Virus record (IMG/VR): IMGVR_UViG_3300037461_000655
Coordinates: 3,053-67,052 of that record
Direction: 5' to 3' (one strand)
DNA length: 64,000 bases
DNA from: a virus
Taxonomy: Duplodnaviria > Caudoviricetes
The notes under the pieces are model-generated. The model had not been told where the DNA came from, searched no databases, and saw only the letters and a list, made by a program, of their open reading frames with translations. The translations under genes and the position numbers were made by a program. This document shows positions 1 through 22,575 of this stretch, piece by piece; position 1 is the stretch's first letter; the number at the start of each line of letters is the position of its first letter.

Positions 1-1057
1 CAAGTCCCTTCCGAAGATAGGTGTAATTGGTCTTGCGCGTCTCAGCAAACCACTTGATCCGCTCCATCTGGGCAACACCACAAGCAGCTTGCATGTCCGT
101 CATCTTGAGGTTGAAGCCCAACTCAGAGAACAAATACTTGTCGTCATAGCCAAGCGGCATCCCGCCCACTTGCCAGCCAAACCGTTTCCCACAGACGTTA
201 TCGTGATTTGGGGGACAGACGCATCGCTTCCCCCAGTTGCTTATTGATGCGACGATCTTGTGGAGCACTGAATTATCTGTGTAAACTGCACCCCCCTCGC
301 CCGTGGTGATTGTGTGGGCTGGGAAGAATGACAGCGTAGCGAGGTCACCCAGCACACCCACAGGAACACCGTCATACTTAGAGGTCATTGCATCGCAGGT
401 ATCATTGATGACCCAAAGAAAGTGCTCTTGCGCGATCTTCATGATGCGTGCCATATCACACGGATTGCCCAGGGTGTGGTCCAGCATGAGGGCCTTTGTG
501 TGTGGACCAATCGCATCGGCAACCTTTTCTGGATCAATGGTGTAGTAGGGCAGCTTGGCATCCACAAACACCGGTACGAGTCCACACTGGAGGAGGGGAT
601 TGACTGTGGTGGGGAAGCCCACAGCAGAGCAGATCACCTCATCGCCAGGGATAAGTGCTCGATAACCAAGGCTTGGCGACATGAGCGCAGCAACCGCCAA
701 CAGATTTGCAGACGATCCTGAATTGCAGGTTGTCACGTAGTCTGTACTTAGATACTCACCAAGTCGCTTCTCAAAGATAGGGTTCCACTTCCCTGTGCTG
801 GTGAGGTCCAGTGCGACTGCTGCTTCAACCATGTTCAAAGCTTCCTGCACACCCACCATCTTGCCTGTGCACGGGATATAAGTCTCCCCTGGCGTAAACT
901 TCTTGGCGCTAACCTTGTGCGAAACATAACTATCCACTAGTGCCAGGATCGCCGGGAGCAAATCTGGTCCACTACGAACATAGCGCAATGACGGATCAGC
1001 TTCAGCGAGATGCTCCGCGCTGATCTCAAGCTCGGATGCGATGGGTTTCTCGTTCAT
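1..1057 (-). CDS. rfbH: RfbH/DdhC-like CDP-4-keto-6-deoxy-D-glucose 3-dehydrase (E1; DegT/DnrJ PLP/PMP fold), 3' end truncated by the window edge
   Basis: Missing from the ORF track; translated by hand from ATG 1057 (ATGA overlap with the upstream stop), open to the edge. Motifs: CNSGSSANLLA, GFPTTVNP, HTLGNP, SFFPAHTITTGEGG (His at the aminotransferase Lys position, as in E1), Fe-S motif WGKRCVCPPNHDNVCGKRF, GFNLKMTDMQAACG. Confidence 0.9.
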   Translation of the reverse strand, partial: MNEKPIASELEISAEHLAEADPSLRYVRSGPDLLPAILALVDSYVSHKVSAKKFTPGETYIPCTGKMVGVQEALNMVEAAVALDLTSTGKWNPIFEKRLGEYLSTDYVTTCNSGSSANLLAVAALMSPSLGYRALIPGDEVICSAVGFPTTVNPLLQCGLVPVFVDAKLPYYTIDPEKVADAIGPHTKALMLDHTLGNPCDMARIMKIAQEHFLWVINDTCDAMTSKYDGVPVGVLGDLATLSFFPAHTITTGEGGAVYTDNSVLHKIVASISNWGKRCVCPPNHDNVCGKRFGWQVGGMPLGYDDKYLFSELGFNLKMTDMQAACGVAQMERIKWFAETRKTNYTYLRKGL

Positions 1058-2364
1058 TTTGTACTCCCAAGATCAGCATCATTGATGAAGTCGTAGCGAC
1101 CCTGCTCCATGGCCTCGCACATGTCCGGATAGCGATTGCAGAAGCTGCATGTCGGATAATAGGGCTGATGGATATAAGTCCTGAGCCTCTCTCGTAGATC
1201 TGGAGCATCAATGTCAAGTCGATCCATCCCTGGATCAACCAATCCGATATTATGAAGCGCGACGCCCAGGTCACAAGGATAAATCTTCCCATTGCAAGCT
1301 TGAAGATTGCGGGGTGGCATGACACACGTTTCCTTGTCATACAGCATCTCACCAACGCTCTTCTTGCGATCATAGAGCGTGCTTGGCTTCACCCATTTCA
1401 ACATAGGATTGCCCAATGTGTAGGAAAGCCCCATGCTCTTTACGATTTCCACATTGGTATGGAACACCTCAAGCTGCCGTTCACTCAACACGCGCTGGTA
1501 ATTCCCGAAGTTGATGCTCAACCGTGGATCTCGGAAATACTCCAGCTTCCAAGGGTAGAGGGGAACCGTGCCAGAAGTAGGGAAGGATGCTAGTCCGAAG
1601 TTGTCGCACTCCGACAGTGCCTTGGCGATGAGATGAATTTCGGGATGCGCGAAGGTTTCTCCACCCATTACCGATACACCACCGATGCTATCGCATGCGC
1701 CGAGCCATGCCTTGATGTCCTTGCAGACCCGTTCAGTGGGATAGTTTACCTGACGATCCTTGGGGTAGCTGTTGATGTACTGAACGCAGTACTTGCAATT
1801 CAACGTACAGAGCGAGTTGACAATCACGCAGACATAGGTGAGGTCGATCCGAGGTCCTGGTTTAGGCTCAGTGCGTGCAGCTACGATGTTGCCCAGCCGT
1901 TCGCAACATATAAATCTACAGGAAAGCGGATCAATACACTTCGAAGCCTTCACACCAGTCTTGGACGAAAAAGGGCACATGGCGCCCATGTAGAGATACT
2001 CACCCTTGATGGCATTACTGAACCCAGCTTGGCGCAGTTGCTCCCATAGATTTGACTTCACGACATTGTTATTGATTGCCAAAATCACAACCGTTTCGGC
2101 AGGGTTCCAGTCACCCGTGAAAGGTTTCCGAACAATGGACCCATTCAAGCTCTTGAGCTCATCAGCACGTTCGTCCCAATAGCACGTCACGCCAATTTTC
2201 TTCTGGGTCAAGTAATCACCGATCTCCGCACCAAAGTTCGCGGCACCGAAGATGATCACATGGGGGAATGAATTGATGTATTCAAGGAGCCCTTCGGGAT
2301 CAGGGTGATTGTCAGGCTGTAGGGCTTTGGCGTAGAAGGTATCAAGATCAAAGGACAGAGGCAT
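1054..2364 (-). CDS. Radical SAM protein with N-terminal Rossmann-like (PglD_N-like) domain and Cys-rich C-terminus
   Basis: CxxxCxxC motif CTLNCKYC, GGE motif (VMGGETF), C-terminal C...NGKIYPC...CSFC; N-terminal VIIFGAANFG. Confidence 0.8.
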   Translation of the reverse strand: MPLSFDLDTFYAKALQPDNHPDPEGLLEYINSFPHVIIFGAANFGAEIGDYLTQKKIGVTCYWDERADELKSLNGSIVRKPFTGDWNPAETVVILAINNNVVKSNLWEQLRQAGFSNAIKGEYLYMGAMCPFSSKTGVKASKCIDPLSCRFICCERLGNIVAARTEPKPGPRIDLTYVCVIVNSLCTLNCKYCVQYINSYPKDRQVNYPTERVCKDIKAWLGACDSIGGVSVMGGETFAHPEIHLIAKALSECDNFGLASFPTSGTVPLYPWKLEYFRDPRLSINFGNYQRVLSERQLEVFHTNVEIVKSMGLSYTLGNPMLKWVKPSTLYDRKKSVGEMLYDKETCVMPPRNLQACNGKIYPCDLGVALHNIGLVDPGMDRLDIDAPDLRERLRTYIHQPYYPTCSFCNRYPDMCEAMEQGRYDFINDADLGSTK

Positions 2365-3433
2365 AGAGCACCGTTTCGGAGTAATCGTGGTGATGGTGGC
2401 GGAGATAGATCTTGTACTCAGGCACTAGCTCATGGAGGTATTGAGGGATCAGCCAGAGGTCCGTCATTTTGTGGTAAACACAGATGGCCAGGTCGGGCTT
2501 GTGGGTCTTAATGGCCTCTTTCGCACCTTTGAGCATCTCCAACTCAAAGCCTTCAATGTCGGCCTTAATGAACGTCACAGATCGACCTTGGAGATAGTCA
2601 TCGAGTGAGTAAAGGGGCACCTCTTCGCCCTTGCGTTCTGCGAGATTGTAGAAGCTATTCCCAGCGCCATTAGGATCAGAGTCTTTCATACAGAGATGTA
2701 ATGCACCACTGAATTCACCAAGGCCACCAAACTCAACATCAATTTTATCCATGGGTAGATCAAACTTCTTAGCCACATCCAACTTACGAGTAAGCACTTG
2801 AAGATATAATGCAGGAGTAGGCTCAAATGAAATGATTTTCTCAAACTGACCATTAGTTGCTTCCGCGAACTCCATCATGGTATCACCGGTGTAAGCTCCA
2901 GCATCAATGAAGACGTGGTTCTTCTGTTGGTGTTTCTGAAAGTCCATGCACCAGTACTGCTTGTCCTCTTGCACGATCTTAAAATATGCAGAATCCTGCT
3001 CATAATGAGCACGAAGAACATGGTAGAAAACATCACGAGACCAATCATCAGCGAGCATGTGGTATACGGCATCCAGACGGTGCAACACGGGAGGATAGAT
3101 GAACTCGCCAATCGTAGCAGACTCAAAAAAGTTCAATGTCTTTTTGATTTTTGTCTGAGCTTCTACTGTCTGCACAGCTACCACAACGTAAGCACCCAGC
3201 GGAATCCGTTTTGGTGAAAATACAGGAAGCCCATGAAACACCGTCCCATGCTTACTAAGATTATCATCTATAAAGCCGATCACTTTATAACCTAGATCAC
3301 GTAATGTGAAGTAGGCATATTTCCCACGGTCACCCGCGCAATAAACTACCATGGGCTGGTCAGGGAAATGGTAAGGCGGACGATTCTTGTGGATGTGTTC
3401 TTTCAGCTCATCCCAGCGCTTTTCAATGTTCAT
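2348..3433 (-). CDS. FkbM-family SAM-dependent methyltransferase with N-terminal Rossmann-like domain
   Basis: VFIDAGAYTGDT, IISFEP, FIKADIEGFE, KPDLAICVYH motifs; start moved to ATG 3433 (ATGA overlap with the GT2 stop). Confidence 0.9.
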   Translation of the reverse strand: MNIEKRWDELKEHIHKNRPPYHFPDQPMVVYCAGDRGKYAYFTLRDLGYKVIGFIDDNLSKHGTVFHGLPVFSPKRIPLGAYVVVAVQTVEAQTKIKKTLNFFESATIGEFIYPPVLHRLDAVYHMLADDWSRDVFYHVLRAHYEQDSAYFKIVQEDKQYWCMDFQKHQQKNHVFIDAGAYTGDTMMEFAEATNGQFEKIISFEPTPALYLQVLTRKLDVAKKFDLPMDKIDVEFGGLGEFSGALHLCMKDSDPNGAGNSFYNLAERKGEEVPLYSLDDYLQGRSVTFIKADIEGFELEMLKGAKEAIKTHKPDLAICVYHKMTDLWLIPQYLHELVPEYKIYLRHHHHDYSETVLYASVL

Positions 3434-4641
3434 AGTGGGAACTCCTTCCAATGGAAAATAGGCACCTCGGTATTGGCGCGCCGAAGACGTGCTTCAATCT
3501 GTTCTTTAGGACGACGTTCACTGGAGATAAGTACCACGTCAACATTGTGATCACAGAGCCACTCCGTGGGATAAATATGAATGCCGGACATGCGGCTACC
3601 TTGGCGCTTTACGTTATCGTCCAAGAAGCAAATCACTTTTGCTGCAGAAACAATGCAATCCTCTGCGAGGAGGTAACTGTTCAAAAACGACCCAAAGATC
3701 GCTACGGTCTTCCCCCTAAGGGAATGTGTCCTCCCATCAGGGATTGCAGGAAGACTGTATTCGGGTGGATACTGTGCTTCAACTTCTGCCAATTCGCTTA
3801 GTAGCTTTGCTGTTGGTTGATCTTTGGTCAGTGCATCTAATACACGATGCCGTAGCAAAGATGCACGGACCATCGGAACTACATCCAGCTTTCCCATGAT
3901 CTTACACATGCTCAACATCTCCTCATGCAGCGCGATGTCACTAGGTGTTATATCCAGCTGGAACGTTTCTGAGCCGGTGTGCACACGATAGTCAATCAGC
4001 GGCTCTGCAATGTAACCAACCCACCCATACATATTGCACTGGCATACCGTGAAGATATCGCCCAGTGGGCCAATGTGCACAGGCGGAGCACCACCTCCCC
4101 ATGGATGGCATTCTGCCTTAGCGCGGATTGGTGGAACGGCGGAAACTCGGATCATGTGCGTTGAGCATTTAATATGGAACCGCTCTTTCATATAAGCTTG
4201 GATGTACTCCCCTTGGCGAAAGATAATGTCCTGTGTATTGGTATCCTGACACTCTTGGGTAATGTGTCCATCCTCGTCAATGATCCTCGCATTGGCTCCT
4301 ACCAACGTCATCTCTGGGCACTTCTCCATCATTGCAATCTCACGTTCCACGATGGTTGGATGGAGAATATCATCATCATGCGTGTGGAGCACAAACTCAC
4401 CACGGGAGCGACGTAACCCTTCCTCCCATGCCACAGGACTCCCACCATGCACCGCTCGTCGCACATAAACAAGGCGGGGGTCTGTGAAGAGTTTGATGAT
4501 CTCCGAAGTGTTATCTGTGGAGCAATCATCCACCACGACAACCTCAATATCCTTGTAGGTTTGGTTAAGAATCGCCTGGATGCAGCCGTGTAGCATCTTA
4601 GCTCTGTTTCGGGTGGTTACCATCACGCTGACTTTGGGCAT
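3430..4641 (-). CDS. Family 2 glycosyltransferase with C-terminal Rossmann-like domain
   Basis: VSVMVTTRNR, EVVVVDDCSTDNT, HTHDDD (DxD-like), DYRVH; ATG 4641 overlaps the upstream TAA (TAATG). Confidence 0.88.
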   Translation of the reverse strand: MPKVSVMVTTRNRAKMLHGCIQAILNQTYKDIEVVVVDDCSTDNTSEIIKLFTDPRLVYVRRAVHGGSPVAWEEGLRRSRGEFVLHTHDDDILHPTIVEREIAMMEKCPEMTLVGANARIIDEDGHITQECQDTNTQDIIFRQGEYIQAYMKERFHIKCSTHMIRVSAVPPIRAKAECHPWGGGAPPVHIGPLGDIFTVCQCNMYGWVGYIAEPLIDYRVHTGSETFQLDITPSDIALHEEMLSMCKIMGKLDVVPMVRASLLRHRVLDALTKDQPTAKLLSELAEVEAQYPPEYSLPAIPDGRTHSLRGKTVAIFGSFLNSYLLAEDCIVSAAKVICFLDDNVKRQGSRMSGIHIYPTEWLCDHNVDVVLISSERRPKEQIEARLRRANTEVPIFHWKEFPL

Positions 4642-5726
4642 TACTTCACTCCCTTCTTCAAAGGCATTCCGAAGCTCGCGCACCATGCGGAAAATTCGTT
4701 ATACCGACATAAATAATTCCGGTTGATCCTATTGACATCAATGCGCTCGAACATCTCACGGATAGACGCCTCGATAACCGCAAGGGGCTCACCAGGCATC
4801 AATGGTATGCCCATATAATCACAGGCGTCGCGTGATCGCATGTCGGTGTTGGTAGTGATCGCAGGAACACCTGCGTTCATCGCAATCACTGACCCATGGC
4901 ACCGAGTTCCCACCATGCAGTGACAATGCTTAGAAATGTGCCGCTTCCATTCATCAGGGTTCATGAAGAAGTGTGTGAGTCCTCCCAGGTAAGCATCTGA
5001 GGTTGGATTATGGAGTTGGCAAATTAGGTTCATGTCATCGTCACCTTGCACATAGTGATGAACGCGCTCGGTTATGGGCTCATAGACCATCTTACCATTC
5101 AACCCTATCCGCAAGGTTTTGCCTTCATCCTGGAGGAACGGTTGTCGGATGAGCCTACCTGGCCCCATTTCGAAATTACTAGGACAGCCTACAGCCTTCA
5201 CATTGGTTAGCCCTGCATCGCACAGGATGCGCTCAGTGATATGTCCACGTGTCCCGATGCTGAAAGCTCTATCGCCCAGCAATTCAAATAGGTGCCGCTT
5301 GATGGGTGTGAGTTTGTCCCAAATGGTGGTGTCGTAGGGTTGTGGGAATGGCATAATGGAGTTCGCGCATAAGCTCATCACAATGAGCTTGGTCTTGTGC
5401 GGATCAATCGCTTCTACGTAACGGCTTACGGAGTCGTACCAGTTATCCTCGCCCTCTGGATCTGTGTAATAGGTTTCTCTGAGGTAGTCTTGGAGGACCA
5501 GTATTACATGGCTAATGTCGCACAAGCTTTTCCGGAATCGGAGCAGCTCACGTGAATTACCATTACCAGGGGAGTTGAAAAAGGCTGTATTAGTTTCATT
5601 CAGGCCAAGCAGCTTCTCAATGGAGTAAGCGATGTAGTAGTTTCCACTGTTCCCATTAGTCTCGTTGAACCATAGCGGGTCCAGTGGTGATCGTGTGCTG
5701 AAGTTGCGATTGAGCAGTGCGTACAT
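4641..5726 (-). CDS. Polysaccharide pyruvyl transferase family protein
   Basis: N-terminal GNSGNYYI, SIGTRGHITERIL, VGCPS and VGTRCHGSVIAMNAGVPA patterns; ATG 5726 overlaps the NeuB stop. Confidence 0.65.
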   Translation of the reverse strand: MYALLNRNFSTRSPLDPLWFNETNGNSGNYYIAYSIEKLLGLNETNTAFFNSPGNGNSRELLRFRKSLCDISHVILVLQDYLRETYYTDPEGEDNWYDSVSRYVEAIDPHKTKLIVMSLCANSIMPFPQPYDTTIWDKLTPIKRHLFELLGDRAFSIGTRGHITERILCDAGLTNVKAVGCPSNFEMGPGRLIRQPFLQDEGKTLRIGLNGKMVYEPITERVHHYVQGDDDMNLICQLHNPTSDAYLGGLTHFFMNPDEWKRHISKHCHCMVGTRCHGSVIAMNAGVPAITTNTDMRSRDACDYMGIPLMPGEPLAVIEASIREMFERIDVNRINRNYLCRYNEFSAWCASFGMPLKKGVK

Positions 5727-6799
5727 CACAAACCTCTGTTTTCAATGTGCGCCCGAAGCTTCGGGTCACGTGAGTAATCATTATCCAGATGGCCAATGGT
5801 CAGTGGATCATCCTTACGAAGTGAACGGATCAGCATCTCGCAGGAAAGGTGTTCTCGATTGCAAAGTTGCCCTTTCTGAAGGGGAACAGCCAGATAAAGA
5901 TCGCCTTCTTGGAGCACATGGCCCACTTCGAGGTCCCGCGTGGCATAGGCCCCACGGACCAGCGCATCAAGGTACTCAATCTCTTTACGAGGTGGAAGTC
6001 GCTTTTCGCAGCCTGGTGCACCGCACATCTCCTTGGCCTTGGCCCAAGCTTTGAACCAAGCATCTACTTGATGAGGCAAGGAGCAATAAGGGGAAACTGT
6101 GACACCATCGGCATTTATGTCTACATGGCGTTCATAGGTCCGTGCGCCCTTTGCCACAGCAATCGCAATGCTAGTCTGCCAGTCTGTGTACTCATGAGTG
6201 GAGAGGCCGATAACGTGATCGGGATAGCGATTCCGCAGAAAGTCAATCTGGTTTAGTTCTAGATCTTCATCTGCTGTTGGGTAGAGTGCAACGCAGTGAT
6301 TAATTGCCAAGGGAATGTGACGGTTTTTGAAGAACTTCACCACATTGTCGATATCTGCAAGAGAGGTTCCACCTGTTGAGACAATCACTGGGAGTTTAGT
6401 GGATGCCATCTTGCGGAGTAGTCCCCAATCAGCCACATCAGAAGAGGCAATCTTTAGGACCTCACACCCGATCTCCACCGCAAGTTCGACACTCCGCTCA
6501 TCAAAGCACGTCGCACAGACCATACAGCCCTCTTTGCGAATCGCATCAGCAAAGGTATGATAGGCTTCGCGGGGGAGTTGCGTAGCAGTGATCTTCTTGA
6601 TATAACGGCACTCGCTTGTACAAAAGTCCTTATGCACAAATGTGCTCACATCCCGAAGTTGAAGCTTGATAGCAGCGCGCACACCATTGTAATAGATGAT
6701 CCGCCCGAAGTCTTTGATGATTTTTAGCCCACGGTCTATGCTGCCTAAATGGTTGTTCGCCATCTCCAACACGAAAAGGTCTTCAAAGATTCGGGTCAT
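5726..6799 (-). CDS. neuB: NeuB/SpsE-family nonulosonate (sialic-acid-type) synthase with C-terminal SAF-like domain
   Basis: VLEMANNHLG, AIKLQ, LKIASSD, PVIVSTGG, INHCVALYP, VIGLSTHE, GARTYERH motifs. Confidence 0.88.
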   Translation of the reverse strand: MTRIFEDLFVLEMANNHLGSIDRGLKIIKDFGRIIYYNGVRAAIKLQLRDVSTFVHKDFCTSECRYIKKITATQLPREAYHTFADAIRKEGCMVCATCFDERSVELAVEIGCEVLKIASSDVADWGLLRKMASTKLPVIVSTGGTSLADIDNVVKFFKNRHIPLAINHCVALYPTADEDLELNQIDFLRNRYPDHVIGLSTHEYTDWQTSIAIAVAKGARTYERHVDINADGVTVSPYCSLPHQVDAWFKAWAKAKEMCGAPGCEKRLPPRKEIEYLDALVRGAYATRDLEVGHVLQEGDLYLAVPLQKGQLCNREHLSCEMLIRSLRKDDPLTIGHLDNDYSRDPKLRAHIENRGL

Positions 6800-7005
6800 T
6801 TGATTATCTCGTGGGTAGTTTTGACGATGTAGTAGAGATTCGCTTCAGTGCCAGGCATGCCTTCGCAGAGATGAGACAAGGCTGTGCGTGCATCAGTAAG
6901 ATTCCGCGCAGAGTCCCAATACTCTCCAGGGAATGACACGCCTTCGGTGCCTTTATAGATGGCCCATTCTGTGCCTTTTTCTTTTTCATTTCTCCGCCTC
7001 CCCAC
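6796..7005 (-). CDS. Small hypothetical protein, start uncertain (possibly frameshifted)
   Basis: Ends in an ATGA overlap with neuB. The ATG at 6989 with the best RBS (GGGGAGG) is in another frame. Confidence 0.4.
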   Translation of the reverse strand: MGRRRNEKEKGTEWAIYKGTEGVSFPGEYWDSARNLTDARTALSHLCEGMPGTEANLYYIVKTTHEIIK

Positions 7006-7048
7006 AGAAAACGAATGCGTAATTTATTCATAGCCCTTCCTGAAAATC

Positions 7049-7288
7049 TTACGACCCCGACCGTGACCGCGACCACGACCACGACCACGACCGCGACCAC
7101 GACCGCGACCACGACCACGACCACGACCGCGACCACGACCACGACCCCGACCGTGGCAACGCCCATGACCGCGACCGCGACCGCGACCGCGACCGCGACC
7201 ACGACCACGACCGCGACCGCGACCGTGACCGTGACCGTGACCGCGACCGTACTATGCTAACTCTACTACTTGCCATAGCAACCAACAT
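7049..7288 (-). CDS. Ser/Arg/Trp dipeptide-repeat protein (SRSRSWSWSRS...)
   Basis: ATG 7288 overlaps the upstream TGA (TGATG); open frame to TAA 7049; same strand as the surrounding operon. Confidence 0.6.
   Translation of the reverse strand: MLVAMASSRVSIVRSRSRSRSRSRSRSWSWSRSRSRSRSRSWALPRSGSWSWSRSWSWSWSRSWSRSWSWSWSRSRSGS
7052..7249. repeat. Hexanucleotide tandem repeat, minus-strand unit TC(G/A)-(C/T/G)GG, about 33 units with one interruption
   Basis: Directly visible cgacca/cgaccg/tgaccg run. Confidence 0.95.
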
Positions 7289-7635
7289 CACTTCACCGTT
7301 TGTGGAAGTGCATGCTTCCACTCTACGGCATCTACAATGCTCCCTAATGACACTATGGCTTGCCCGTACACCGGTTCAACTTCGTTGAGCTTGCCGTCGC
7401 GGATCGCTTCATTATAGCGCCCCGTGTCAGCGATCCACGCCGCAGAATCTAGAACGAGAAAGCCGCCTTGCGTTGTCACGACCTGTCCCGTCCATGTCAT
7501 GGTGACTGTTCGGATGAGGTAGCATTTACCAACATGGAAAGGCGTCGGATTACCAACATCATTCATAGTGGCACCACCCAACCCTTTTAACTCTTTCACT
7601 TGGCCTAGTGTTAGGTCATCGATATTGATGCTCAT
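7288..7635 (-). CDS. Conserved phage hypothetical protein (Sm-like beta fold suspected)
   Basis: MSINIDDLTLGQVKEL...YLIRTVTMTWTG...AAWIADTGR pattern, which I recognise from environmental phages; coupled overlaps at both ends. Confidence 0.7.
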   Translation of the reverse strand: MSINIDDLTLGQVKELKGLGGATMNDVGNPTPFHVGKCYLIRTVTMTWTGQVVTTQGGFLVLDSAAWIADTGRYNEAIRDGKLNEVEPVYGQAIVSLGSIVDAVEWKHALPQTVK

Positions 7636-8294
7636 AGTCCCTCCTTTAGGGGAAATTTGATACGTGGTTCGAAGTTCTGTGCAGGATCAACTAGAACTTC
7701 AATCAACACAGGGCCAGGCCACTCCTCCAGCGCGTCTGCCAAGTCGTCTTCGTCCTCCACCAGTTCATACCGTAAGCCGTAAGCCTGAGCAAGCAACTCG
7801 AAGTCAGGGAAACCCACACCCGATTCAAGCCCTATACCGGCATAGTGACCACCGAAAAAGCGATCTTGGGTTTGTCGAATGCTCACATAGCCTGAATTGT
7901 TTAGCACAAAGATCGTTATGGGCAGATCATTGTGTGCGATAGTAGCGAGATCCCCCACGCTCATCTGGAGCGAGCCATCCCCCTCAATCAGGATCACACG
8001 CTGACCTGGCTTCGCGCCCCGTGCCGCTCCAATGGCTGCGCCCACGCCCCAGCCCATCGCAGAGCTTCCACCGTTGGTGTAGAGGCGCTGGCCCTCTTTG
8101 ATCTTCGCGGCCTGGAACGTTGCAACGGTGGCGGTTCCATTCGCACAAACGATGATGGTGTCCTCACGCAGCTGGTCGAAGAGCTGTGCCATGAAGGCGT
8201 AGGGATTCAGCCTCGGTGTATCGTGGTACTCAGGCAGGATAACGGGGTATTTTGCCTGCCATTCGTAGCACTGAGCGAGCCATGTTGGATTCAT
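7632..8294 (-). CDS. TPP-binding C-terminal domain of an acetolactate-synthase-like (YerE-like) enzyme, second half of a split gene
   Basis: SAMGWGVGAAIGA and the TPP/Mg motif EGDGSLQM...VLNNSGY; RBS GGGAGGAGG before ATG 8294. Confidence 0.88.
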   Translation of the reverse strand: MNPTWLAQCYEWQAKYPVILPEYHDTPRLNPYAFMAQLFDQLREDTIIVCANGTATVATFQAAKIKEGQRLYTNGGSSAMGWGVGAAIGAARGAKPGQRVILIEGDGSLQMSVGDLATIAHNDLPITIFVLNNSGYVSIRQTQDRFFGGHYAGIGLESGVGFPDFELLAQAYGLRYELVEDEDDLADALEEWPGPVLIEVLVDPAQNFEPRIKFPLKEGL

Positions 8295-8307
8295 GATTCC
8301 TCCTCCC

Positions 8308-9456
8308 CTAAGTTTGCACAAGAGGGTGATACTCTTGCGCGGTCTTTCCAAAGGTGCTCGCTATAGCACTATGCGCTGTTCGGGGTTGAGGATCACCAAG
8401 AGAACCGTCCGGATGCATCAACCTGATTTCCGGATGCACTCTCAGAAAATAGGTTTTATATTCACCATCTGGCTCCGGTGTAGAGTTAATGACTTCTACC
8501 ATAAGCATGGGCTCATCATCTTTAAAACGTCGTTCCCACAGTTTGCCGGTCTCATCTTCATGCAATAGTGTGGAGCCAGAATCTGTCAAGAAACGAGATT
8601 GCCCATAACGCTCAATCATAACACGGCGGACTTCTACGTTCTTCTCTTTTAGCACATCACTACAAGTGATCATCTCTGGATTTTCAATAATCTTGGCCGG
8701 GACACGTACACCCTTGTAGGCGAATACGGCATAACCGTCTGAGAATGCGAGTGCAGGGCCGGTCTCGCAATGTAATAGGTTGCGTTCATTCTGGTGGATT
8801 TCGGTAGGGCGATCACAAATAAAACAGATGCCATCGAGAGCATAAATCCACCCACAGGACCGCGTTAGCCGTTCCCATTGAGACAATAGCGCTCGATCCT
8901 CATTGGAGAACATGGGGTGTATGAAGCGATCTGGGAATGTGTAATAGCTAATCCATGCGATGTCCCACTGTCCCCAGGAAAAAGCATCAACCCATTCGAT
9001 TTTCATGTCCCCAAGGTTGGCCCAAAGGTTGTCCCGAAGGTTGTCCTGAAGGTTGTCCCCAAGGTTGTCCTGAAGGTTGTCCCCAAGGTTGTCCACAAGG
9101 TTGTCCTGAAGGTTGGCCCGAAGGTTGTCCACAAGGTTGTCCACAAGGTTGTACCAAAGGTTGTCCCAAAGGTTGGCCTAAAGGTTGTCCCCAAGGTTGT
9201 CCTGAAGGTTGGCCACAAGGTTGGCCAATTTCCCGCTTCGCAAGATATTGATTTCAAGTTGTGCCTGGAAAGGCGATTGGCAGAGAAAAAATTTAGGTGT
9301 TGGTTTCCCAATGCGTCGATAAAAATCTGTCAATACCTCTACGGATGCTTGGGCATCCATCTTGTCAGTGGATAACCCGATTTTAAGACATTCGTCTCTC
9401 CAGGAAACCATTCGTGTTTCCTGCTCCAAAGTGAGGGATAATATTTTCTTCTTCAT
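8308..9456 (-). pseudogene. DUF6745-like phage protein with a tetrapeptide repeat, interrupted by an in-frame TAG at 9178-9180
   Basis: Track ORFs 9178..9492 and 8308..9144 are in the same frame, separated by one TAG. C-terminal features: CGWIY, LHCETGPALAFSDG, NVEVRRVMIERYG, VEVINSTPEPDG...YFLRV. Confidence 0.75.
9007..9226. repeat. 12-bp tandem repeat, 18 units, minus-strand consensus NNG-G(A/C)C-AAC-CTT (x-D/A-N-L)
   Basis: aaggtt recurs exactly every 12 nt from 9013 to 9217. Confidence 0.97.
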
Positions 9457-9457
9457 G

Positions 9458-9763
9458 TCAATCCGCCACTCGCTGCGTTCCGAGAGGGTCATATTCCCGC
9501 TGGATGTAGCTCACGTAATCCCCAGGCGGAAGAGTAACAGGCGCATGTTCTTCGTGGACGAGATCCACGGGAGATTCAACATGTAGATATATCTTGCCAT
9601 CTTTCTCGTATGCCACGCATATGGTGGGATCGGCAACAATGACGTGTTGATGCCCTGTTACCTCGCCATCTGCCAAAACGATGCGCGGGCCAAGGATTGG
9701 TTTTGCATCCTTGGGGATGTCAGACTGTTGAACGAAAACGTCGCCCTGTCTGTAGCATTTCAT
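9458..9763 (-). CDS. Conserved phage hypothetical protein, usual neighbour of DUF6745-type genes (His-rich, cupin-like)
   Basis: YRQGDV...LADGEVTGHQH...LVHEEHAPVTLPPGDY...QREY pattern. Confidence 0.75.
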   Translation of the reverse strand: MKCYRQGDVFVQQSDIPKDAKPILGPRIVLADGEVTGHQHVIVADPTICVAYEKDGKIYLHVESPVDLVHEEHAPVTLPPGDYVSYIQREYDPLGTQRVAD

Positions 9764-10797
9764 TGTGGTGCCTCTTGAGAGTGAAGAAGTTTTGAAAGAA
9801 ACTCTTTTAGATCCGCGTGGATGGGCAGGTCGATCTTGGGGAAGGGCTTTGTCAGCTCAGCCTCATCAATGTCCACCATCACCTTGTAGGCTTTGGGAGC
9901 GAAGGCATCCCAGTTGAAGCTGACACTTCGGATGTTGCACCGGCTCCCCAGGATCAACAGGAAGTCGCTCTTCTGCACCGCGAGGTTCCCTGCGATGTCG
10001 CCGATGGTTCCCTGCCGTCCGATGTAACAGGGATGATCGCTAGGGATCAGGTCATGGCCGTTGTAGGCCGTCACCACGGGGATTCCTAACAGTTCCACCA
10101 GTGCCCGGAACTCCTCCACCGCACCCGCCGTGCGGATACCTGAGCCCGCGAGGCTCACGGGACGCCTGGCCCTAACTAGCCGATCCATGAGAGCATGAAC
10201 GCCGTTGCTGATGTCAGGCAATTCCTCTTCCCATAGTAGGGTGTCATCTTGCATTTCAGCAGGGTTAACCTCTCTGGCTTGTATGTCCACAGGGATGCTT
10301 AGCCACACAGGGCCAGGACGCCGGGTGGTAGCTAGGCCGAGAGCAATGAAGAGGTGATTCTTGGTGGTGTAGACATCAATTATTTCTTCTGCATACTTCG
10401 TGATGTCTCGCACCATCTCCATGATTGGCGTTTCTTGATCGCCCAGTTGCCGCAACTGCCCGGTGAAGCGCAGATCCCTATTGATCGTCCGCGAGTCGCA
10501 TTGCCCAGAGATCACGATCATGCCCATGGAGTCGCAGTAGGCCCCATGCACACCCGTCACAGCATTCAAGCTTCCTGGTCCAGCCGTTACGCAGACACAA
10601 GCCAACCTGCCGGTCAAGCGGAAGTAACTCTCAGCAGCACAGACGCATGCATTCTCATGAGCAAAATAAGTCACGCGAAGATCAGGGTGCTTAGCGAAGC
10701 TGTCATTGAGGTGCATGCTCGCACCACCCACCACCGAGAAAACCTCAGTGATCCCAGCATCCACAAGGGTTTGGGCTACGTAGTCTGAAAGTTTCAC
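9760..10797 (-). CDS. N-terminal and central domains of an acetolactate-synthase-like TPP enzyme (YerE-like), first half of a split gene
   Basis: MKLSDYVA...VFSVVGGASMHL, HENAC (catalytic Glu), TAGPG, RPGPVWLSIPVDIQ, GNLAVQKSDFLLILGSR; stops before the TPP-binding domain. Confidence 0.9.
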   Translation of the reverse strand: MKLSDYVAQTLVDAGITEVFSVVGGASMHLNDSFAKHPDLRVTYFAHENACVCAAESYFRLTGRLACVCVTAGPGSLNAVTGVHGAYCDSMGMIVISGQCDSRTINRDLRFTGQLRQLGDQETPIMEMVRDITKYAEEIIDVYTTKNHLFIALGLATTRRPGPVWLSIPVDIQAREVNPAEMQDDTLLWEEELPDISNGVHALMDRLVRARRPVSLAGSGIRTAGAVEEFRALVELLGIPVVTAYNGHDLIPSDHPCYIGRQGTIGDIAGNLAVQKSDFLLILGSRCNIRSVSFNWDAFAPKAYKVMVDIDEAELTKPFPKIDLPIHADLKEFLSKLLHSQEAPQ

Positions 10798-11222
10798 ACT
10801 ACATCTCCATTATCAAATCTACAATGCTGATGGTGCCGTTCAGCACACGCATGATGGTCCGGTTGGAAGTAACCAGGGCCATTATAGCCACAGATGAAAC
10901 ATGGGGCTTTGCGCATGGCTCCGAGTTTCAGGAGCATGTTCTCTAGGCGTTCGATGGCGACTAAGCTCTCTGTGCGTTGTAACTTCAGCTCTTGAACTTG
11001 CTGGGTCAACTCCGCGAGGTAGTCCTCGCCTATTGCCCTGTGGAATGCCGCACGGATTGCATCTAGCTGTGATGGCCACGAGCCCTCGGGACTCACTCCA
11101 TTAGCAAGCAGCTCCACAAAGCTCTCCAGAAAATGGCGATCACTCATGGCCCATGAAAGGAATTCGTGCCTCGCTTCCTCGTCTTGCATCACTTTTTCGG
11201 GCTCTAGTTTTAAGAGGATCAT
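10794..11222 (-). CDS. Hypothetical protein with a coiled coil and C-terminal Cys/His cluster (CFICGYNGPGYFQPDHHAC)
   Basis: ORF track; coupled overlaps at both ends. Confidence 0.6.
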   Translation of the reverse strand: MILLKLEPEKVMQDEEARHEFLSWAMSDRHFLESFVELLANGVSPEGSWPSQLDAIRAAFHRAIGEDYLAELTQQVQELKLQRTESLVAIERLENMLLKLGAMRKAPCFICGYNGPGYFQPDHHACAERHHQHCRFDNGDVV

Positions 11223-11518
11223 TTCACACCTCGTTCAATCCGCTGCTTGGCCTTTGCTTCTTCCATACGCTTCCGTGCTTGCGAAGCCTCTAAGATCCAC
11301 TGATTGATATCTTTCTTTGTATAGGCCTCACGTAGCTCAAGCAGCTCTTGCTCGGCATACACTGCCCGCCGATGTTCATCCCGAGCGATGATGCAGAGGA
11401 TCAGCAATGCTGCCGTGCACGAGATAAGTAATATTATGTAGACCGCCTTGTGGTTGGCTTGGTTGGGTGGCTCATCCAGTGAGTGTCCTTGGTCTTGGTC
11501 CCCTGCCCAATGGTTCAT
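11219..11518 (-). CDS. Hypothetical membrane protein (one TM helix followed by a coiled coil)
   Basis: Hydrophobic stretch AVYIILLISCTAALLILCIIA; overlaps the next gene. Confidence 0.55.
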   Translation of the reverse strand: MNHWAGDQDQGHSLDEPPNQANHKAVYIILLISCTAALLILCIIARDEHRRAVYAEQELLELREAYTKKDINQWILEASQARKRMEEAKAKQRIERGVK

Positions 11519-11754: not shown

Positions 11755-11888
11755 TTCACATCTCCATTCTTTTGGCAAATAACCCAATGCCTGAGCCATT
11801 GGCTAGTCCATGCTCGATAAAGACACCACGCTACGATGCCTAAGAATGCTACAACATCAATGAACTTTGCTATGATTTGCCCTGTCAT
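11751..11888 (-). CDS. Small membrane peptide (45 aa)
   Basis: ATG 11888 overlaps the deaminase TGA; hydrophobic core; ends in an ATGA overlap. Confidence 0.45.
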   Translation of the reverse strand: MTGQIIAKFIDVVAFLGIVAWCLYRAWTSQWLRHWVICQKNGDVK

Positions 11889-12331
11889 AAAAGTAATTCC
11901 CAAATACGTCCAGTCTTCAACCAAAGCTCTTTTGGTAGTGGGTCTACATGTTCTTCTAAAAACACAATACGCTGGCAACTTGTATTCAGTAATAATTTTA
12001 AGCAAGCTTTACATGGGCTTAGTGTGACATAAGCAGTTTCAATATCAGAAGTTTCACGGCACTGTAAAAGTGCGTTCATCTCCGCGTGCACAGCTTCACA
12101 CGTATCTTTTCCAGGGGGTAGATCATGGCCTATACAAAGATTACTCCAGCGGTGTTCTGTGTCTAGCTCATTACAATGTGGAAGTCCACGAGCGACGCCA
12201 TTATAACCAATTGCTAAAACATGCCCTTGTTTGTTAGCAAGCACACACCCAACACCCCGTCGAATACACGTCGTACGAGTAGCTGCTACCTTAGCAAGCT
12301 CCATCAAATATTGATCAAGAGTAGGCCTCAT
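11885..12331 (-). CDS. dCMP deaminase (cytidine/deoxycytidylate deaminase family)
   Basis: CIRRGVGCVL, HAEMNAL and SPCKAC zinc-binding motifs. Confidence 0.92.
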   Translation of the reverse strand: MRPTLDQYLMELAKVAATRTTCIRRGVGCVLANKQGHVLAIGYNGVARGLPHCNELDTEHRWSNLCIGHDLPPGKDTCEAVHAEMNALLQCRETSDIETAYVTLSPCKACLKLLLNTSCQRIVFLEEHVDPLPKELWLKTGRIWELLL

Positions 12332-12726
12332 AAAGATTCCAACCTTAAGCTAGGTTTATGGTCAGGAGCTCGCCAGAACGGCGGTTTAATAATGTCAAGT
12401 GTTGTCCCGTGCTTACTCTCCTCAGGTCGTTGTGCCCGTACTTTCTCCATATTAGCGCGCTGCACTTCAACCCACAAAGCATCCCATGGGAGCCCCATAC
12501 AAATAGCTGTCCCATGCACGATATAGGCCAGATCTATTAAGGCATCTGCAGCCCCCTCAAGATCATCAGCTCCATGTGCTTCTGCAAATTCATCAAGCTC
12601 TTCTGTAAGGCGCTTTAGCCTAAAAACTAACGTTGTGTCATCTAGCAACCCTGGTTTCACTAATCTGGGTATTCCAAATTTTGTAAAAAATGCTTGAACG
12701 TCTTCATGGTCAGTAGTTTCACGCAT
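12328..12726 (-). CDS. MazG-like all-alpha NTP pyrophosphohydrolase
   Basis: EELDEF...DALIDLAYIVHGTA...VQRANMEK...IIKP pattern. Confidence 0.85.
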   Translation of the reverse strand: MRETTDHEDVQAFFTKFGIPRLVKPGLLDDTTLVFRLKRLTEELDEFAEAHGADDLEGAADALIDLAYIVHGTAICMGLPWDALWVEVQRANMEKVRAQRPEESKHGTTLDIIKPPFWRAPDHKPSLRLESL

Positions 12727-12735
12727 CTCAGTCCC

Positions 12736-13584
12736 CTAAACATTAAGCTTAGCACTTACTGCATCATGAGCTAGGTAATCTATTAGCCTAGCACCTTCAG
12801 GTTCAAACCCAAATAATGAAGTCTCAGACCTAAGTCCTAGCATAGGAGCTTTGTAGGGTTTTCGCTTGAGTACTTCTGTTACTTGTGGAAGATGATTAAG
12901 ATACACATGAGCATCCCCGATGAAGAAAGTGAGCTCATTGCTTTGCAGCCCTACCTCCTTAGCAATCAGCCGTTGGAGTAGTGCGTAACCAGCCAAGTCA
13001 AAAGGTAGCCCTAAGAATAGATCACATGATCGTTGGTAAACAGCCATTCTAAGTTGTGACCCCACTATGTAACACTGAAATAGGATAGGGCATGGTGGGA
13101 GGCACATACAATCCAGCTCACCGGGATTCCACGCAGTGACAATATGACGTCGACCATGAGGTTCCCTACGGAGCCCATCTATAAGCACTTGAAGTTGATC
13201 CGTCGTTTTCATTTGGCAACTAGTCGCTTGCACAGATTCAATAGACCGCCAGGTTCGCCAGTTGACCCCGTAAATACGCCCAAGATCACCATCAAATTCT
13301 TGTTTCCCAGAAGCGAGCCACCGTGGGTCTGTGCCATTACCATCCCAGACCGTGCACCCTTTAGCGTGAAAGGCTTCAAGACTATGGCTTCCGCTAATAA
13401 AACATGCCATTTCAGCTGCGCATTGCCTAAAAGCTAGGCGTTTTGTAGTTACAGCTGGAAAAGTAGTAGAGTTAGAAACAGTTATCTGTTCCGCAAATAA
13501 AGCTAGTGTCCCAGTGCCTGTTCGGTCTTGCCGGGAAGTTCCATGATTAAGAACTTTTCTAAGGAGCGTAAGCCAAACCCTCAT
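12736..13584 (-). CDS. thyA: Thymidylate synthase homolog with Asp at the Asn177 position (candidate dCMP methylase/hydroxymethylase)
   Basis: DRTGTGT, FPAVTTK, DLGRIYGVNWR, RRHIVTAWNP, LPPCP, QRSCDLFLGLPFD, GDAHVYLNH; start moved to ATG 13584. Confidence 0.9.
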   Translation of the reverse strand: MRVWLTLLRKVLNHGTSRQDRTGTGTLALFAEQITVSNSTTFPAVTTKRLAFRQCAAEMACFISGSHSLEAFHAKGCTVWDGNGTDPRWLASGKQEFDGDLGRIYGVNWRTWRSIESVQATSCQMKTTDQLQVLIDGLRREPHGRRHIVTAWNPGELDCMCLPPCPILFQCYIVGSQLRMAVYQRSCDLFLGLPFDLAGYALLQRLIAKEVGLQSNELTFFIGDAHVYLNHLPQVTEVLKRKPYKAPMLGLRSETSLFGFEPEGARLIDYLAHDAVSAKLNV

Positions 13585-13585
13585 T

Positions 13586-13915
13586 TCATTGCTCCTCGCG
13601 ATCATCTAATTCAGGATGCCGCTTAGTCATACTAAGCAGAAACATAAGACAGCACATCGCATGCGCAAGATGTGGTAGATTGCTTTCAGGATCGAGATCT
13701 TCACCCTTAATAAAGGCGAACAAATGCCGCAAAGCTGCTCCAATAAGCCGACTAAATGCTAAACCTTTAGTCCAATTCCATGGCGCATACTTTTGAGCTC
13801 CAAAAGTTAGAACACACGCAAGCTGCTCTATTGCATAAGGATCAAGCAACTCCATACGAGGCTTCTCGGCATCAAATTTAGTAGCTCCAAGTTGAGAAGT
13901 AGGCTCAAGCCCCAT
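13586..13915 (-). CDS. dATP/dGTP diphosphohydrolase N-terminal-type protein (DUF5664)
   Basis: KFDAEKPRMELL...VLTFGAQKYAPWNWTKG...AALRHL...GEDLDPES.LPHLAHA pattern. Confidence 0.85.
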   Translation of the reverse strand: MGLEPTSQLGATKFDAEKPRMELLDPYAIEQLACVLTFGAQKYAPWNWTKGLAFSRLIGAALRHLFAFIKGEDLDPESNLPHLAHAMCCLMFLLSMTKRHPELDDREEQ

Positions 13916-21166: not shown

Positions 21167-21667
21167 TTATAGCCAACTAGGTCGCTGGCGCTTGGTGTAA
21201 GTAAGAAGGTGGGCTTTAGCCACCCGATAATAGGAGCGGTAAGAAGTAACGACATCATGCTCGAAGTCGTTGGCATAGTAAATAATGAACTCATCAGGCA
21301 TGCAACACACAAATGGAGTTAGCTCACCGCCTTGCACGCAGGCAGGAACACAACTCAGAGCATTCAAGACAGCTCGCGACTTGTGGGCGTGGCCGTAGCG
21401 AAATTCGAACTCATCGCACAAGGTAATGCCAAGCTTGAAGAGCCATGAGTAGTTGCCCGAGGACTGACCGGCCCACTTGACACATGGATGATTCCGATGG
21501 GTGGGACGATACGCCTCAGCAGGAATGGCATAGTGAGCACCCTTAGGAAGCTCATGCCAAACAGTGCTCAAGATCTGAGTAGTTTCAAGGATCATCTTGA
21601 CCACGTGCTTATCACAGTGCATCTGAGCAGCAAGCACGGGATCAGTATCAAGCACAAATATATTCAT
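21167..21667 (-). CDS. Pyrimidine-dimer DNA glycosylase/endonuclease V-like family protein
   Basis: MNIFVL...HCDKHVVKMILE..Q.LST, YRPTHRNHPCVKW, RYGHAHKS, SYRSYY pattern. Confidence 0.75.
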   Translation of the reverse strand: MNIFVLDTDPVLAAQMHCDKHVVKMILETTQILSTVWHELPKGAHYAIPAEAYRPTHRNHPCVKWAGQSSGNYSWLFKLGITLCDEFEFRYGHAHKSRAVLNALSCVPACVQGGELTPFVCCMPDEFIIYYANDFEHDVVTSYRSYYRVAKAHLLTYTKRQRPSWL

Positions 21668-21668
21668 A

Positions 21669-22133
21669 TTACTTGATCTTATGAAGTGATAATGTGACGG
21701 TATCGAAGGCTTCAACGCCAGGAACAATTTTCTTATCATTCCATCGTTCTTCTACAGCCTTCTTATTCAGCGCACGGTTCAGCAAGCTGAAGTCCTTTGT
21801 CTTAAGCACATGCTTGTATAAGGCGTCCCAGTCTTTCACTTGGGGCACACTCTTGCAGACTACGGACACCTGGGCCCGCTTACCTGCCACTCCAGTTGCT
21901 TCAGACTTAGGGATATTGTCAATAAGGTAAGCCTTCACAAACTCTTCTTGAGTTTTTAGTGCTGCAGCTTCCTTGTCCTTAGCCAACCGCTCATCGCGCA
22001 GTTGATCGTACAGGTCTGCACACGCTGCTAAAGTTTTGGGTAACTTAATAGCAGGGCTCTCTTTTATATTTTCAAAACTAGTGTCCTCAGCACTACACTC
22101 TTTAGACTTCTTTGGGCTTATAACTTTGACCAT
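21669..22133 (-). CDS. Conserved phage replication-module hypothetical protein
   Basis: Helical N-terminus followed by VKDWDALYKHV...LLNRALN pattern. Confidence 0.7.
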   Translation of the reverse strand: MVKVISPKKSKECSAEDTSFENIKESPAIKLPKTLAACADLYDQLRDERLAKDKEAAALKTQEEFVKAYLIDNIPKSEATGVAGKRAQVSVVCKSVPQVKDWDALYKHVLKTKDFSLLNRALNKKAVEERWNDKKIVPGVEAFDTVTLSLHKIK

Positions 22134-22191: not shown

Positions 22192-22575
22192 TTACATTGA
22201 AAGCTTGACTGTAGGACCTTCATTTATTGAACTACTCTCTACGTGATACTCTCGTTCAAGCTCTGCGAAAATTCCTCGTATGATATCAGGCTCTGTTTTG
22301 AAGTCCCGAAATGCATGACAAAAAGTCACTAATGGAATACCATGTTGAAGTCCAAGTGACACTGCTACAGCAAAAGCATGCATCATTGCACGCCCAAAAG
22401 TCCCTTCGCGTTGGTGGTCAAGAAAAATCTCTCCTAGACTACCGTCTACATACTCACCTGTAGCTAGATGAACTCGGGCAGCGCCTATTCCAACTTCAAC
22501 TCTTAAGCCTTCACGACGGTCTTTCAACCGATACCTTAGTGCAGCTGGTGGAGCGCTCCCGAATTCATTAGCCAT
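22192..22575 (-). CDS. Stand-alone TSCPD-like domain (C-terminal module of class II ribonucleotide reductase)
   Basis: TGEYVDGSLGEIF...AFAVAVSLGLQHGIPL...F.D.KTEP pattern. Confidence 0.7.
   Translation of the reverse strand: MANEFGSAPPAALRYRLKDRREGLRVEVGIGAARVHLATGEYVDGSLGEIFLDHQREGTFGRAMMHAFAVAVSLGLQHGIPLVTFCHAFRDFKTEPDIIRGIFAELEREYHVESSSINEGPTVKLSM

Follow-up and report, generated by a model that had tools for sequence, protein, structure and literature searches.

The window analyzed in this study, a stretch of 64,000 nucleotides comprising bases 3053-67052 of the 67,052-bp IMG/VR record IMGVR_UViG_3300037461_000655 (rated 100% complete), begins with a set of sugar-pathway genes on the minus strand of a virulent-looking tailed phage, which we discuss here as a candidate pathway toward an acyl-branched 3,6-dideoxyhexose. 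A first-pass annotation, made from the letters of the window alone, had assigned seven sugar-related families to this leftward arm, and Pfam confirmed each of them at its place: RfbH, or E1 (DegT; 1-1057, the first 352 codons of a gene for 462 amino acids, which ends left of the window and occupies L002 2721-4109 in the flanking sequence); a radical SAM (S-adenosylmethionine) enzyme of 436 amino acids (1054-2364; a weak match to Radical_SAM); an FkbM-family SAM methyltransferase (Methyltransf_21; 2348-3433, with the longest open reading frame (ORF) reaching 3451); a soluble GT2 (GT-A) glycosyltransferase (Glycos_transf_2; 3430-4641, longest ORF to 4686); a polysaccharide pyruvyl transferase family protein (PS_pyruv_trans; 4641-5729); a NeuB-fold synthase (NeuB; 5726-6799); and a thiamine pyrophosphate (TPP) enzyme in two pieces, namely the N-terminal (Pyr) and middle domains (345 amino acids; TPP_enzyme_N and TPP_enzyme_M; 9760-10797) and the C-terminal (PP) half (220 amino acids; TPP_enzyme_C; 7632-8294, longest ORF to 8351). 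The accompanying claim of a multi-step sugar pathway on one phage arm was likewise supported.

ATGA or GTGA overlaps of four bases were found at eight junctions, and the two other overlap types, TAATG between the pyruvyl transferase and GT2 genes and TGATG between the NeuB-like and pyruvyl transferase genes, were present when starts backed by a ribosome-binding site (RBS) were chosen. The likely start of the FkbM gene is ATG 3433, which forms an ATGA overlap with the GT2 stop, and that of the GT2 gene is ATG 4641 (the TAATG overlap). Between the enzyme genes lie two ORFs with no family, of 69 amino acids (6796-7005; ATGA overlap with NeuB) and 115 amino acids (7288-7635; ATGA overlap with the TPP C-half), and, between the TPP halves, an insert in two parts: a DUF6745 protein in one frame broken by a TAG (8308-9492; Pfam DUF6745, phrog_31813) and a phage-family ORF of 101 amino acids (9458-9763; phrog_27831, E 4e-12). 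The earlier description of the interleaved genes as typical phage hypotheticals held in part: the 101-amino acid ORF, the DUF6745 protein and, weakly, a 105-amino acid ORF matched phage families, and the others were orphans. Two further coupled orphan ORFs of 142 and 99 amino acids (10794-11518; four-base overlaps, no family) join the sugar genes to a dCMP deaminase/MazG/thymidylate-synthase-like block. A tandem repeat of the hexamer CGACCG (33 copies, 198 bp; 7052-7249) was located between the 115- and 69-amino acid ORFs; it is open in all three minus-strand frames (as RG-, RS-, and VA-repeats) and probably gives rise, as an artefact, to a 134-amino acid ORF at 6804-7208.

The first-pass annotation had proposed that circularity be checked and the contig extended leftward. 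A 127-bp terminal repeat was found (window 63874-64000, identical to contig bases 1-127), which joins the contig ends; therefore, the genome closes and the left flank is readable (L002), and the 3 kb left of the window were read. This flank contained the remainder of RfbH, two small ORFs, an extended short-chain dehydrogenase/reductase (SDR) of 309 amino acids, and a small membrane-anchored ORF, followed across the circular junction by a DUF5660-like ORF, a pentapeptide-repeat protein, and a second glycosyltransferase of 670 amino acids with two GT2 domains (59052-61064, minus strand; Pfam Glycos_transf_2 twice). The cluster on the arm is, thus, as first described but larger, by the SDR reductase left of the window and this double GT2. 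On the other hand, rfbF, rfbG, ddhD, and a cytidine monophosphate (CMP)-transferase, which had been expected beyond the left edge, were found neither in the flank nor elsewhere in the genome.

Myophage structural genes (terminase, portal, protease, major head protein, tail sheath, tape measure, and baseplate) occupy 27.8-59 kb, and replication genes (DNA polymerase, helicase, primase, and exonuclease) 15-26 kb; neither an integrase nor tRNA genes were found in the phage genome. The tetranucleotide signature of the sugar block correlated with those of the phage head and tail modules at 0.75-0.83, and with those of bacterial loci carrying the same genes at 0.38-0.57. Because the genome is closed, the genes are translationally coupled, their composition matches, and no integrase was found, we took the sugar genes to be part of the phage, and the view that they are the phage's own, not flanking host DNA, was borne out by the terminal repeats, the coupling into nucleotide-metabolism genes, and the tetranucleotide signature. 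The G+C content, 0.51 in the sugar block and 0.44 in the replication block next to it, would be in keeping with an assembly chimera near 11 kb, or with host DNA next to a prophage end; however, the repeat closes a genome rated complete, phage-type genes flank the cluster and lie inside it, four-base overlaps span the 11-kb boundary, the signature match to the head and tail modules exceeded that to any bacterial locus, and no integrase was found. We consider this explanation to be extremely unlikely.

RfbH scored above the NCBIfam equivalog cut-off (NF011936; 547.7 vs 423 bits) and aligned end to end with Yersinia E1 (PDB 3bcx; E 6e-141). His220, which E1 has in place of the aminotransferase Lys, was kept (PAH aligned to the PAH of 3bcx; invariant H248 in the alignment), and the positions of Cys193, Cys251, Cys253, and Cys261 in 3bcx were all Cys in the phage protein; the four-cysteine [2Fe-2S] motif of E1 is C-X57-C-X-C-X7-C. 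On these criteria, RfbH is a true E1, i.e., a CDP-6-deoxy-D-xylo-4-hexulose 3-dehydrase. Relatives of RfbH on other contigs were 87, 70, and 61% identical. In the SDR, both GxxGxxG and YxxxK were intact. A Cys-rich ORF of 157 amino acids after RfbH was considered as a redox partner and dropped, with Atlas giving small viral hypotheticals at low scores.

Among PDB entries, both halves of the TPP enzyme matched best to 8rph, JanthE, which is a YerE-like enzyme (PMC12188165): E 8e-51 for the N-half, versus 9e-41 for the best acetolactate synthase, and 8e-37 versus 2e-19 for the C-half (118 bits with TPP_enzyme_C), or a preference of 10 and 17 orders of magnitude in E-value, respectively. The Pyr, middle, and PP domains are all present, on two polypeptides, with the catalytic Glu (in HEN) and the GDGS...NN motif for thiamine diphosphate (ThDP) kept, and the enzyme is encoded on the same arm as RfbH (the sugar 3-dehydratase) and the SDR (the reductase). 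In a tree, it fell within a clade of NeuB-linked enzymes (support 99), as sister to the enzyme of another viral contig (L003). The split enzyme is predicted to be a YerE-like ThDP carboligase. The C-half has its own strong RBS, GGAGGAGG, and ATG just after the DUF6745 stop, and we infer that the two halves still assemble. Within the insert, DUF6745 was recognized by Pfam at 187 bits; this ORF and a 104-amino acid ORF form one 394-codon frame with a single in-frame TAG (9178-9180), which sits within a 12-nucleotide repeat (18 copies, 9006-9223) encoding xNLxDNLx. The TAG could be due to a broken gene, read-through, or an assembly error in the repeat; its recoding was rejected, as TAG terminates 18 of the 72 long ORFs.

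The NeuB-like protein (Pfam NeuB, 125 bits) remained far below the equivalog cut-offs of NeuB_NnaB (111.6 vs 399.65 bits) and PseI (106.1 vs 340.25 bits), and its closest solved relative was the uncharacterised PDB 3g8r (E 1e-56). The equivalents of K129, H215, E234, and H236 of N. meningitidis NeuB, which bind phosphoenolpyruvate (PEP) and metal, were kept, and no CMP-transferase (CTP_transf_3) was present in the genome. The sialic-acid role implied by the name, therefore, did not stand, given these scores and a subfamily that travels with YerE-like enzymes (see below); the protein belongs to a 3g8r-type subfamily and is not a sialic-acid synthase.

To place these genes, bacterial loci (L013-L092) were taken as the best 80 of more than 560 matches to the NeuB-like gene, with homologs counted within 10 kb. 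A TPP homolog was found in 76-78 of the 80, an SDR homolog in 54, RfbH in 46, and FkbM in 18, at identities to the phage proteins of 59-65% (NeuB-like), 41-52% (TPP), 44-49% (RfbH), and 30-34% (SDR); RfbF, RfbG, HAD phosphatase, Wzz, and GT2 genes were also common. As background, 80 environmental RfbH loci (bacterial, approximately 50% identity) contained a TPP gene in 24 cases and a NeuB-like gene in nine. A module RfbF-RfbG-RfbH-SDR-TPP-HAD-NeuB-like recurred in Terriglobales, Rhodocyclales, Accumulibacter, and others, of which no description was found in the papers searched. The genes are adjacent in this module and in the phage, and the TPP enzymes belong to one clade; in contrast to the phage, the bacterial module usually includes a nucleotidyltransferase, 4,6-dehydratase, HAD phosphatase, and export/chain-length genes (Wzz). 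Since this NeuB subfamily stands beside a YerE-like enzyme in 78 of the 80 loci, it probably makes the α-keto-acid branch donor. The product of NeuB-type enzymes is a 4-hydroxy-2-oxo acid, and the phage enzyme would probably form such a donor from PEP and an aldehyde. In 47 of the 80 bacterial loci (e.g., L039 9317-9976), the TPP and NeuB-like genes flank a gene for a HAD phosphatase, an arrangement which suggests that the NeuB-like enzyme handles a phosphorylated aldose, as in the KDO-8-P and Neu5Ac-9-P routes.

Ten other viral contigs carry the TPP enzyme, with NeuB adjoining in six and PanB in at least two others, and an E1 or ColD-type dehydratase was located within approximately 3 kb of the TPP gene in nine of the ten. 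The DegT proteins aligned from four of them (L004, L009, L010, and L011) all had the dehydratase His, not the aminotransferase Lys. In L009 (11796-12731) and L011 (11800-12723), the TPP gene is followed by a homolog of PanB (ketopantoate hydroxymethyltransferase), the two being 80% identical to each other, and preceded by a 4,6-dehydratase and by a ColD-type dehydratase that lacks the Fe-S cysteines; PanB, a maker of hydroxy-keto acids, appears to be a second type of donor enzyme within this set of genes. In L003, the closest case, the order is TPP-NeuB-GT2, with SDRs and a radical SAM enzyme coming next; the block lies directly downstream of tail-fibre genes and near a glycosyltransferase of phrog_13126. 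The genome of this phage has no DegT gene at all; therefore, the constant core is the branching step and not deoxygenation. Neither the terminase nor the sheath protein of the window phage is shared by these viruses, and viral sequences took at least three separate positions in the TPP tree, so that the genes were probably acquired, or passed between viruses, more than once. The 70.7-kb L004 contig, with its cassette at 5981-7572, is rated 15% complete, indicating a very large virus, and has GT17- and GT34-like glycosyltransferases beside the dehydratase, NeuB, TPP, and FkbM cassette.

The remaining enzymes of the window are putative tailoring enzymes and glycosyltransferases. The radical SAM protein reached 25 bits with Pfam, under the cut-off of 29.5, and has CxxxCxxC at residues 186-193; no sequence relative was found in PDB, and its Atlas neighbours were generic radical SAM clusters, some with C2185-like_N. 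Its N-terminus is a small NeuD/PglD-like (C2185-like_N) domain that matches the first 85 positions of TIGR03570. The FkbM protein (Methyltransf_21, 57 bits; TIGR01444) has an N-terminal domain of the same kind, also matching TIGR03570, and the C-terminus of GT2 resembles the FkbM N-terminus (z = 6.2 versus shuffles). These related terminal domains are a hint that the three proteins act on one nucleotide-sugar. GT2 (Glycos_transf_2, 90.8 bits) has no transmembrane segment and is 44% identical, over its full length, to the GT2 after NeuB in L003. PS_pyruv_trans scored 45.6 bits against a Pfam cut-off of 25.3, and the WcaK equivalog models were not reached; the polysaccharide pyruvyl transferase family is PEP-dependent. 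Tailoring as the role of the radical SAM, FkbM, and pyruvyl-transferase-like proteins is a guess. The double GT2, which lies past the circular junction but still on the leftward arm, is convergent on a tail-fibre (collar-domain) gene (57863-59062). It matched the SunS family weakly and also matched phrog_13126, to which the glycosyltransferase beside the tail fibre in L003 belongs as well.

Acyl-branched 3,6-dideoxyhexoses are made by bacterial clusters for yersiniose (YerE/YerF, Yersinia pseudotuberculosis), erwiniose (ErwE/F/I/J), caryophyllose (MMAR_2331-2333), and gastriose (PMC9306805, PMC12247030). In the published scheme, the acceptor is CDP-4-keto-3,6-dideoxyglucose, formed by E1, a YerE-like ThDP enzyme joins the acyl branch, the clusters encode a maker of a γ-hydroxy α-keto acid, and a YerF-like reductase completes the branch (PMC9306805). 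By comparison, about ten phage enzymes probably perform the late steps toward a sugar of this class, a reading to which we assign a probability of approximately 0.6. In the order that we propose, host RfbF and RfbG would supply CDP-4-keto-6-deoxyglucose and a host reductase would serve E1; phage RfbH would strip the 3-hydroxyl to give CDP-4-keto-3,6-dideoxyglucose; the NeuB-like enzyme would convert PEP and an aldehyde to a 4-hydroxy-2-oxo acid; the two-piece YerE-like enzyme would decarboxylate this acid and put the acyl group on C4 of the keto-sugar; and the 309-amino acid SDR would reduce the new side-chain ketone, as YerF does. FkbM, the radical SAM enzyme, and the pyruvyl-transferase-like protein might then tailor the product, which the soluble GT2, and perhaps the double GT2 near the tail-fibre gene, would transfer to an acceptor. 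If so, the phage retains the branching and tailoring steps and has to obtain an activated precursor from the host.

Several observations weigh against this assignment. Of the companions of E1, neither rfbF and rfbG nor ddhD (the E3 reductase) turned up in the 67-kb phage genome, and a HAD phosphatase was not found either; therefore, the pathway works only in a host that supplies these functions. Whole-genome searches for NTP_transferase, CTP_transf_3, NTP_transf_3, Fer2, and NAD_binding_1 returned nothing, in contrast to control genomes, in which they were detected, and tblastn of bacterial RfbF and RfbG against the phage genome gave no match. The insert of 1.4 kb interrupts the TPP gene in the linker that connects the middle and PP domains, and the TPP product is without the tail of approximately 28 amino acids (..DG..V.P.L.DM.PFL..) of bacterial homologs and JanthE. 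The pyruvyl transferase was absent from all 80 bacterial and ten viral comparison loci, and the window radical SAM enzyme had no counterpart in any of them. We know of no 3g8r-type NeuB-like enzyme with a known substrate. In addition, 34 of the 80 bacterial loci and one complete viral genome (G001) had NeuB with TPP and no E1 in the stretch searched, so that the acceptor keto-sugar of the subfamily need not always be an E1 product.

This last observation also favors two unrelated sugar routes without branching, in which NeuB and the TPP enzyme would lead to a higher ulosonic acid or, once the NeuB product is decarboxylated, to a chain-extended deoxy sugar, and RfbH to a plain 3,6-dideoxyhexose. 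ThDP enzymes of this superfamily can be plain α-keto-acid decarboxylases, and the HAD phosphatase between the bacterial TPP and NeuB genes recalls ulosonate-phosphate pathways. However, both TPP halves were specifically closest to a YerE-like carboligase, an E1/ColD-type dehydratase is near the TPP gene in nine of the ten viral and 46 of the 80 bacterial loci, we found no nucleotidyltransferase, for CMP or otherwise, by which a free ulosonic acid could be activated, and, beyond the single SDR, no 4-reductase/epimerase set for a standard dideoxyhexose was seen. Separate routes are, in our estimation, unlikely.

The split and shortened TPP gene, the missing early genes, the in-frame stop in the DUF6745 gene of the insert, and the 198-bp hexamer repeat might instead indicate decaying cargo, i.e., a captured bacterial cluster that is being lost and is no longer productive. 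On the other hand, all nine enzyme reading frames were intact, motifs were kept wherever they were checked (RfbH, NeuB, the SDR, the radical SAM enzyme, and both TPP halves), coupling between the genes is tight, the TPP C-half starts from an ATG with a strong RBS of its own, and the composition of the sugar block agrees with that of the phage structural genes. Four relatives (P0122-P0125), 81, 73, 69, and 66% identical to the N-half, were unsplit proteins of 558-562 amino acids with a short terminus (..FAPRIRFP.E..). The short C-terminus being common to four relatives (66-82% identity), it is a conserved trait of the clade, and the split, with close relatives unsplit, is private to this phage. 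Three of these unsplit relatives are from contigs (15,242, 12,446, and 55,961 bp) equal in length to those bearing RfbH relatives (87, 61, and 70% identity), indicating that both genes are retained there. Furthermore, in the viral locus L010 (9989-11768), the same linker of the TPP enzyme is the site of an independent split, which leaves two overlapping ORFs (344 and 252 amino acids) and no inserted genes. Decay appears to be distinctly unlikely as an account of the cluster.

DNA hypermodification, also raised in the first-pass annotation, would have the GT2 enzymes put the sugar on a modified pyrimidine in the phage DNA, following phage clusters in which a glycosyltransferase occurs with a thymidylate-synthase homolog or a TET-like dioxygenase. 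DNA sugars attach to 5-hydroxymethyl bases, and no maker of such bases was found (no Tet_JBP domain and no C5 DNA methyltransferase, with a divergent dioxygenase being possible), so that this proposal fared poorly. In its favor, approximately 9 kb separate a GT-A enzyme from a thymidylate-synthase homolog (12736-13605), an interval that includes a dCMP deaminase and a MazG-like gene, and a glycosyltransferase near such a homolog is a mark of candidate DNA-sugar pathways, under the criteria for which this neighbourhood would be flagged (Pyle et al., bioRxiv 10.1101/2023.12.21.572611). The Asp at the Asn177 position of the homolog also implies a cytosine substrate. Nevertheless, the homolog has a full C-terminus and its 60 best PDB matches listed were all thymidylate synthases, dihydrofolate reductase (DHFR), required by a reductive methylase but not by a hydroxymethylase, is present, and the DNA glycans described by Pyle et al. 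(bioRxiv 10.1101/2023.12.21.572611) are host-pool hexose, N-acetylhexosamine, or heptose, not the products of a nine-enzyme pathway. We regard DNA as a highly improbable target. The nucleotide block itself (11885-13915) comprises the dCMP deaminase, a MazG/PRA-PH-like pyrophosphatase, the thymidylate-synthase homolog (in which Asp replaces Asn177 and the catalytic Cys is followed by Pro), and a protein with a dGTP_diPhyd_N domain, with DHFR 10 kb away (23064-23591); this set would fit a 5-methyl-dCMP route.

If the branched-sugar pathway operates, its acceptor would be a virion protein with about two chances in five, a host envelope glycan with slightly more than one in three, and something else with one in four. 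The proteins of the cluster are all soluble, and no Wzx-, Wzy-, or WaaL-like polytopic protein was found in the genome. A slight lean to the virion comes from the solubility of the glycosyltransferases, from the position of one of them next to the tail-fibre gene in each of two unrelated phages, and from the virulent look of the genome. A wider, tentative and rather doubtful proposal is that a portable branching kit, consisting of a NeuB-like or PanB-like keto-acid maker, a YerE-like enzyme, a reductase, and GT2, diverts a host keto-sugar nucleotide in unrelated phage lineages and makes a long-chain branched higher sugar, which here might decorate the virion (tail fibres or capsid).

Concerning the carrier, neither the cluster nor the structural region had a megablast match among GenBank phages, and tblastn of a TPP half and NeuB gave matches of approximately 27-33% identity (e.g., ilvB and sialic-acid-synthase genes) and no true relative. 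Same-lineage phages were sought via the helicase, RfbH, and terminase, and no close retrievable phage was found. In 401 Acidobacteriota genomes, terminase relatives reached 39% identity, not above Aaphi23-like phages (41%); one named Bryobacteraceae terminase, 50% identical to that of the window, is a weak host lead. Among terminase relatives at 43-61% identity, several of 776-906 amino acids (P0248, P0252, P0255, P0257, P0280, P0282, and others) bear intein or Hint domains, and the window terminase (27839-29434) has neither. The replication arm contains a pyrimidine-dimer DNA glycosylase homolog (21167-21739), a TSCPD-domain ORF at 22192-22575, and, at 23582-23983, a small protein that combines a DnaJ J-domain with a zinc finger. 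A promoter/terminator scan found no enrichment over shuffles.

The phage set resembles bacterial branched-sugar operons in having E1, a YerE-like enzyme, an NAD(P)H reductase, a maker of a hydroxy α-keto acid, an optional SAM methyltransferase, and a glycosyltransferase. It differs from them in its phage carrier, in a PEP-dependent NeuB-fold donor maker where the bacterial clusters use an HpcH- or BphI-type pyruvate aldolase, in that rfbF, rfbG, and E3 were not found, in a two-piece, tail-less ThDP enzyme, and in the added radical SAM enzyme and pyruvyl-transferase-like protein. Mycobacteriophages that glycosylate their virions and giant viruses with glycan pathways use common or amino sugars; these systems also have virus-encoded glycosyltransferases and sugar-nucleotide enzymes, with a glycosyltransferase beside structural genes, but the branched-sugar chemistry proposed for the present phage is different. 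As in 5-hydroxymethylcytosine glycosylation clusters, a GT-A enzyme lies within 10 kb of a thymidylate-synthase homolog and dCMP deaminase; unlike them, the phage has no hydroxymethylase or TET-like enzyme that we could find, and its synthase homolog is methylase-like and accompanied by DHFR. With the sialic, pseudaminic, and legionaminic acid systems (NeuB, PseI, and LegI), it shares the TIM-barrel fold and the PEP and metal ligands, whereas a CMP-transferase, 2-epimerase, and acetyltransferase are not present and the synthase is of the 3g8r-type subfamily. No report of a phage with an E1 dehydrase or YerE-like enzyme was found in the searchable literature, and reviews on the YerE-like enzymes are silent about NeuB and about phages. 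Both this chemistry and glycan genes carried by phages were known before; new here are their combination, a donor enzyme of the NeuB type, and the fact that the early steps have been lost.

Branched 3,6-dideoxy sugars are rare and immunodominant on bacterial surfaces, and their synthesis has been worked out in few bacteria. If the branched-sugar assignment is correct, viruses could re-route a host nucleotide-sugar to a new sugar by late enzymes alone, which would bear on phage-host recognition, superinfection exclusion, and virion shielding. The ThDP enzyme, split by nature and tail-less, would also test how much of the scaffold this biocatalyst requires. The near-constant NeuB-YerE pairing in hundreds of environmental bacteria would, furthermore, give a testable function to an uncharacterised NeuB subfamily and indicate how long, polyhydroxylated side chains might be made; were the portable kit to exist as well and its product to decorate the virion, this would represent a new kind of virion glycan, and branched-sugar donor synthase would be the first role assigned to the 3g8r-type enzymes.

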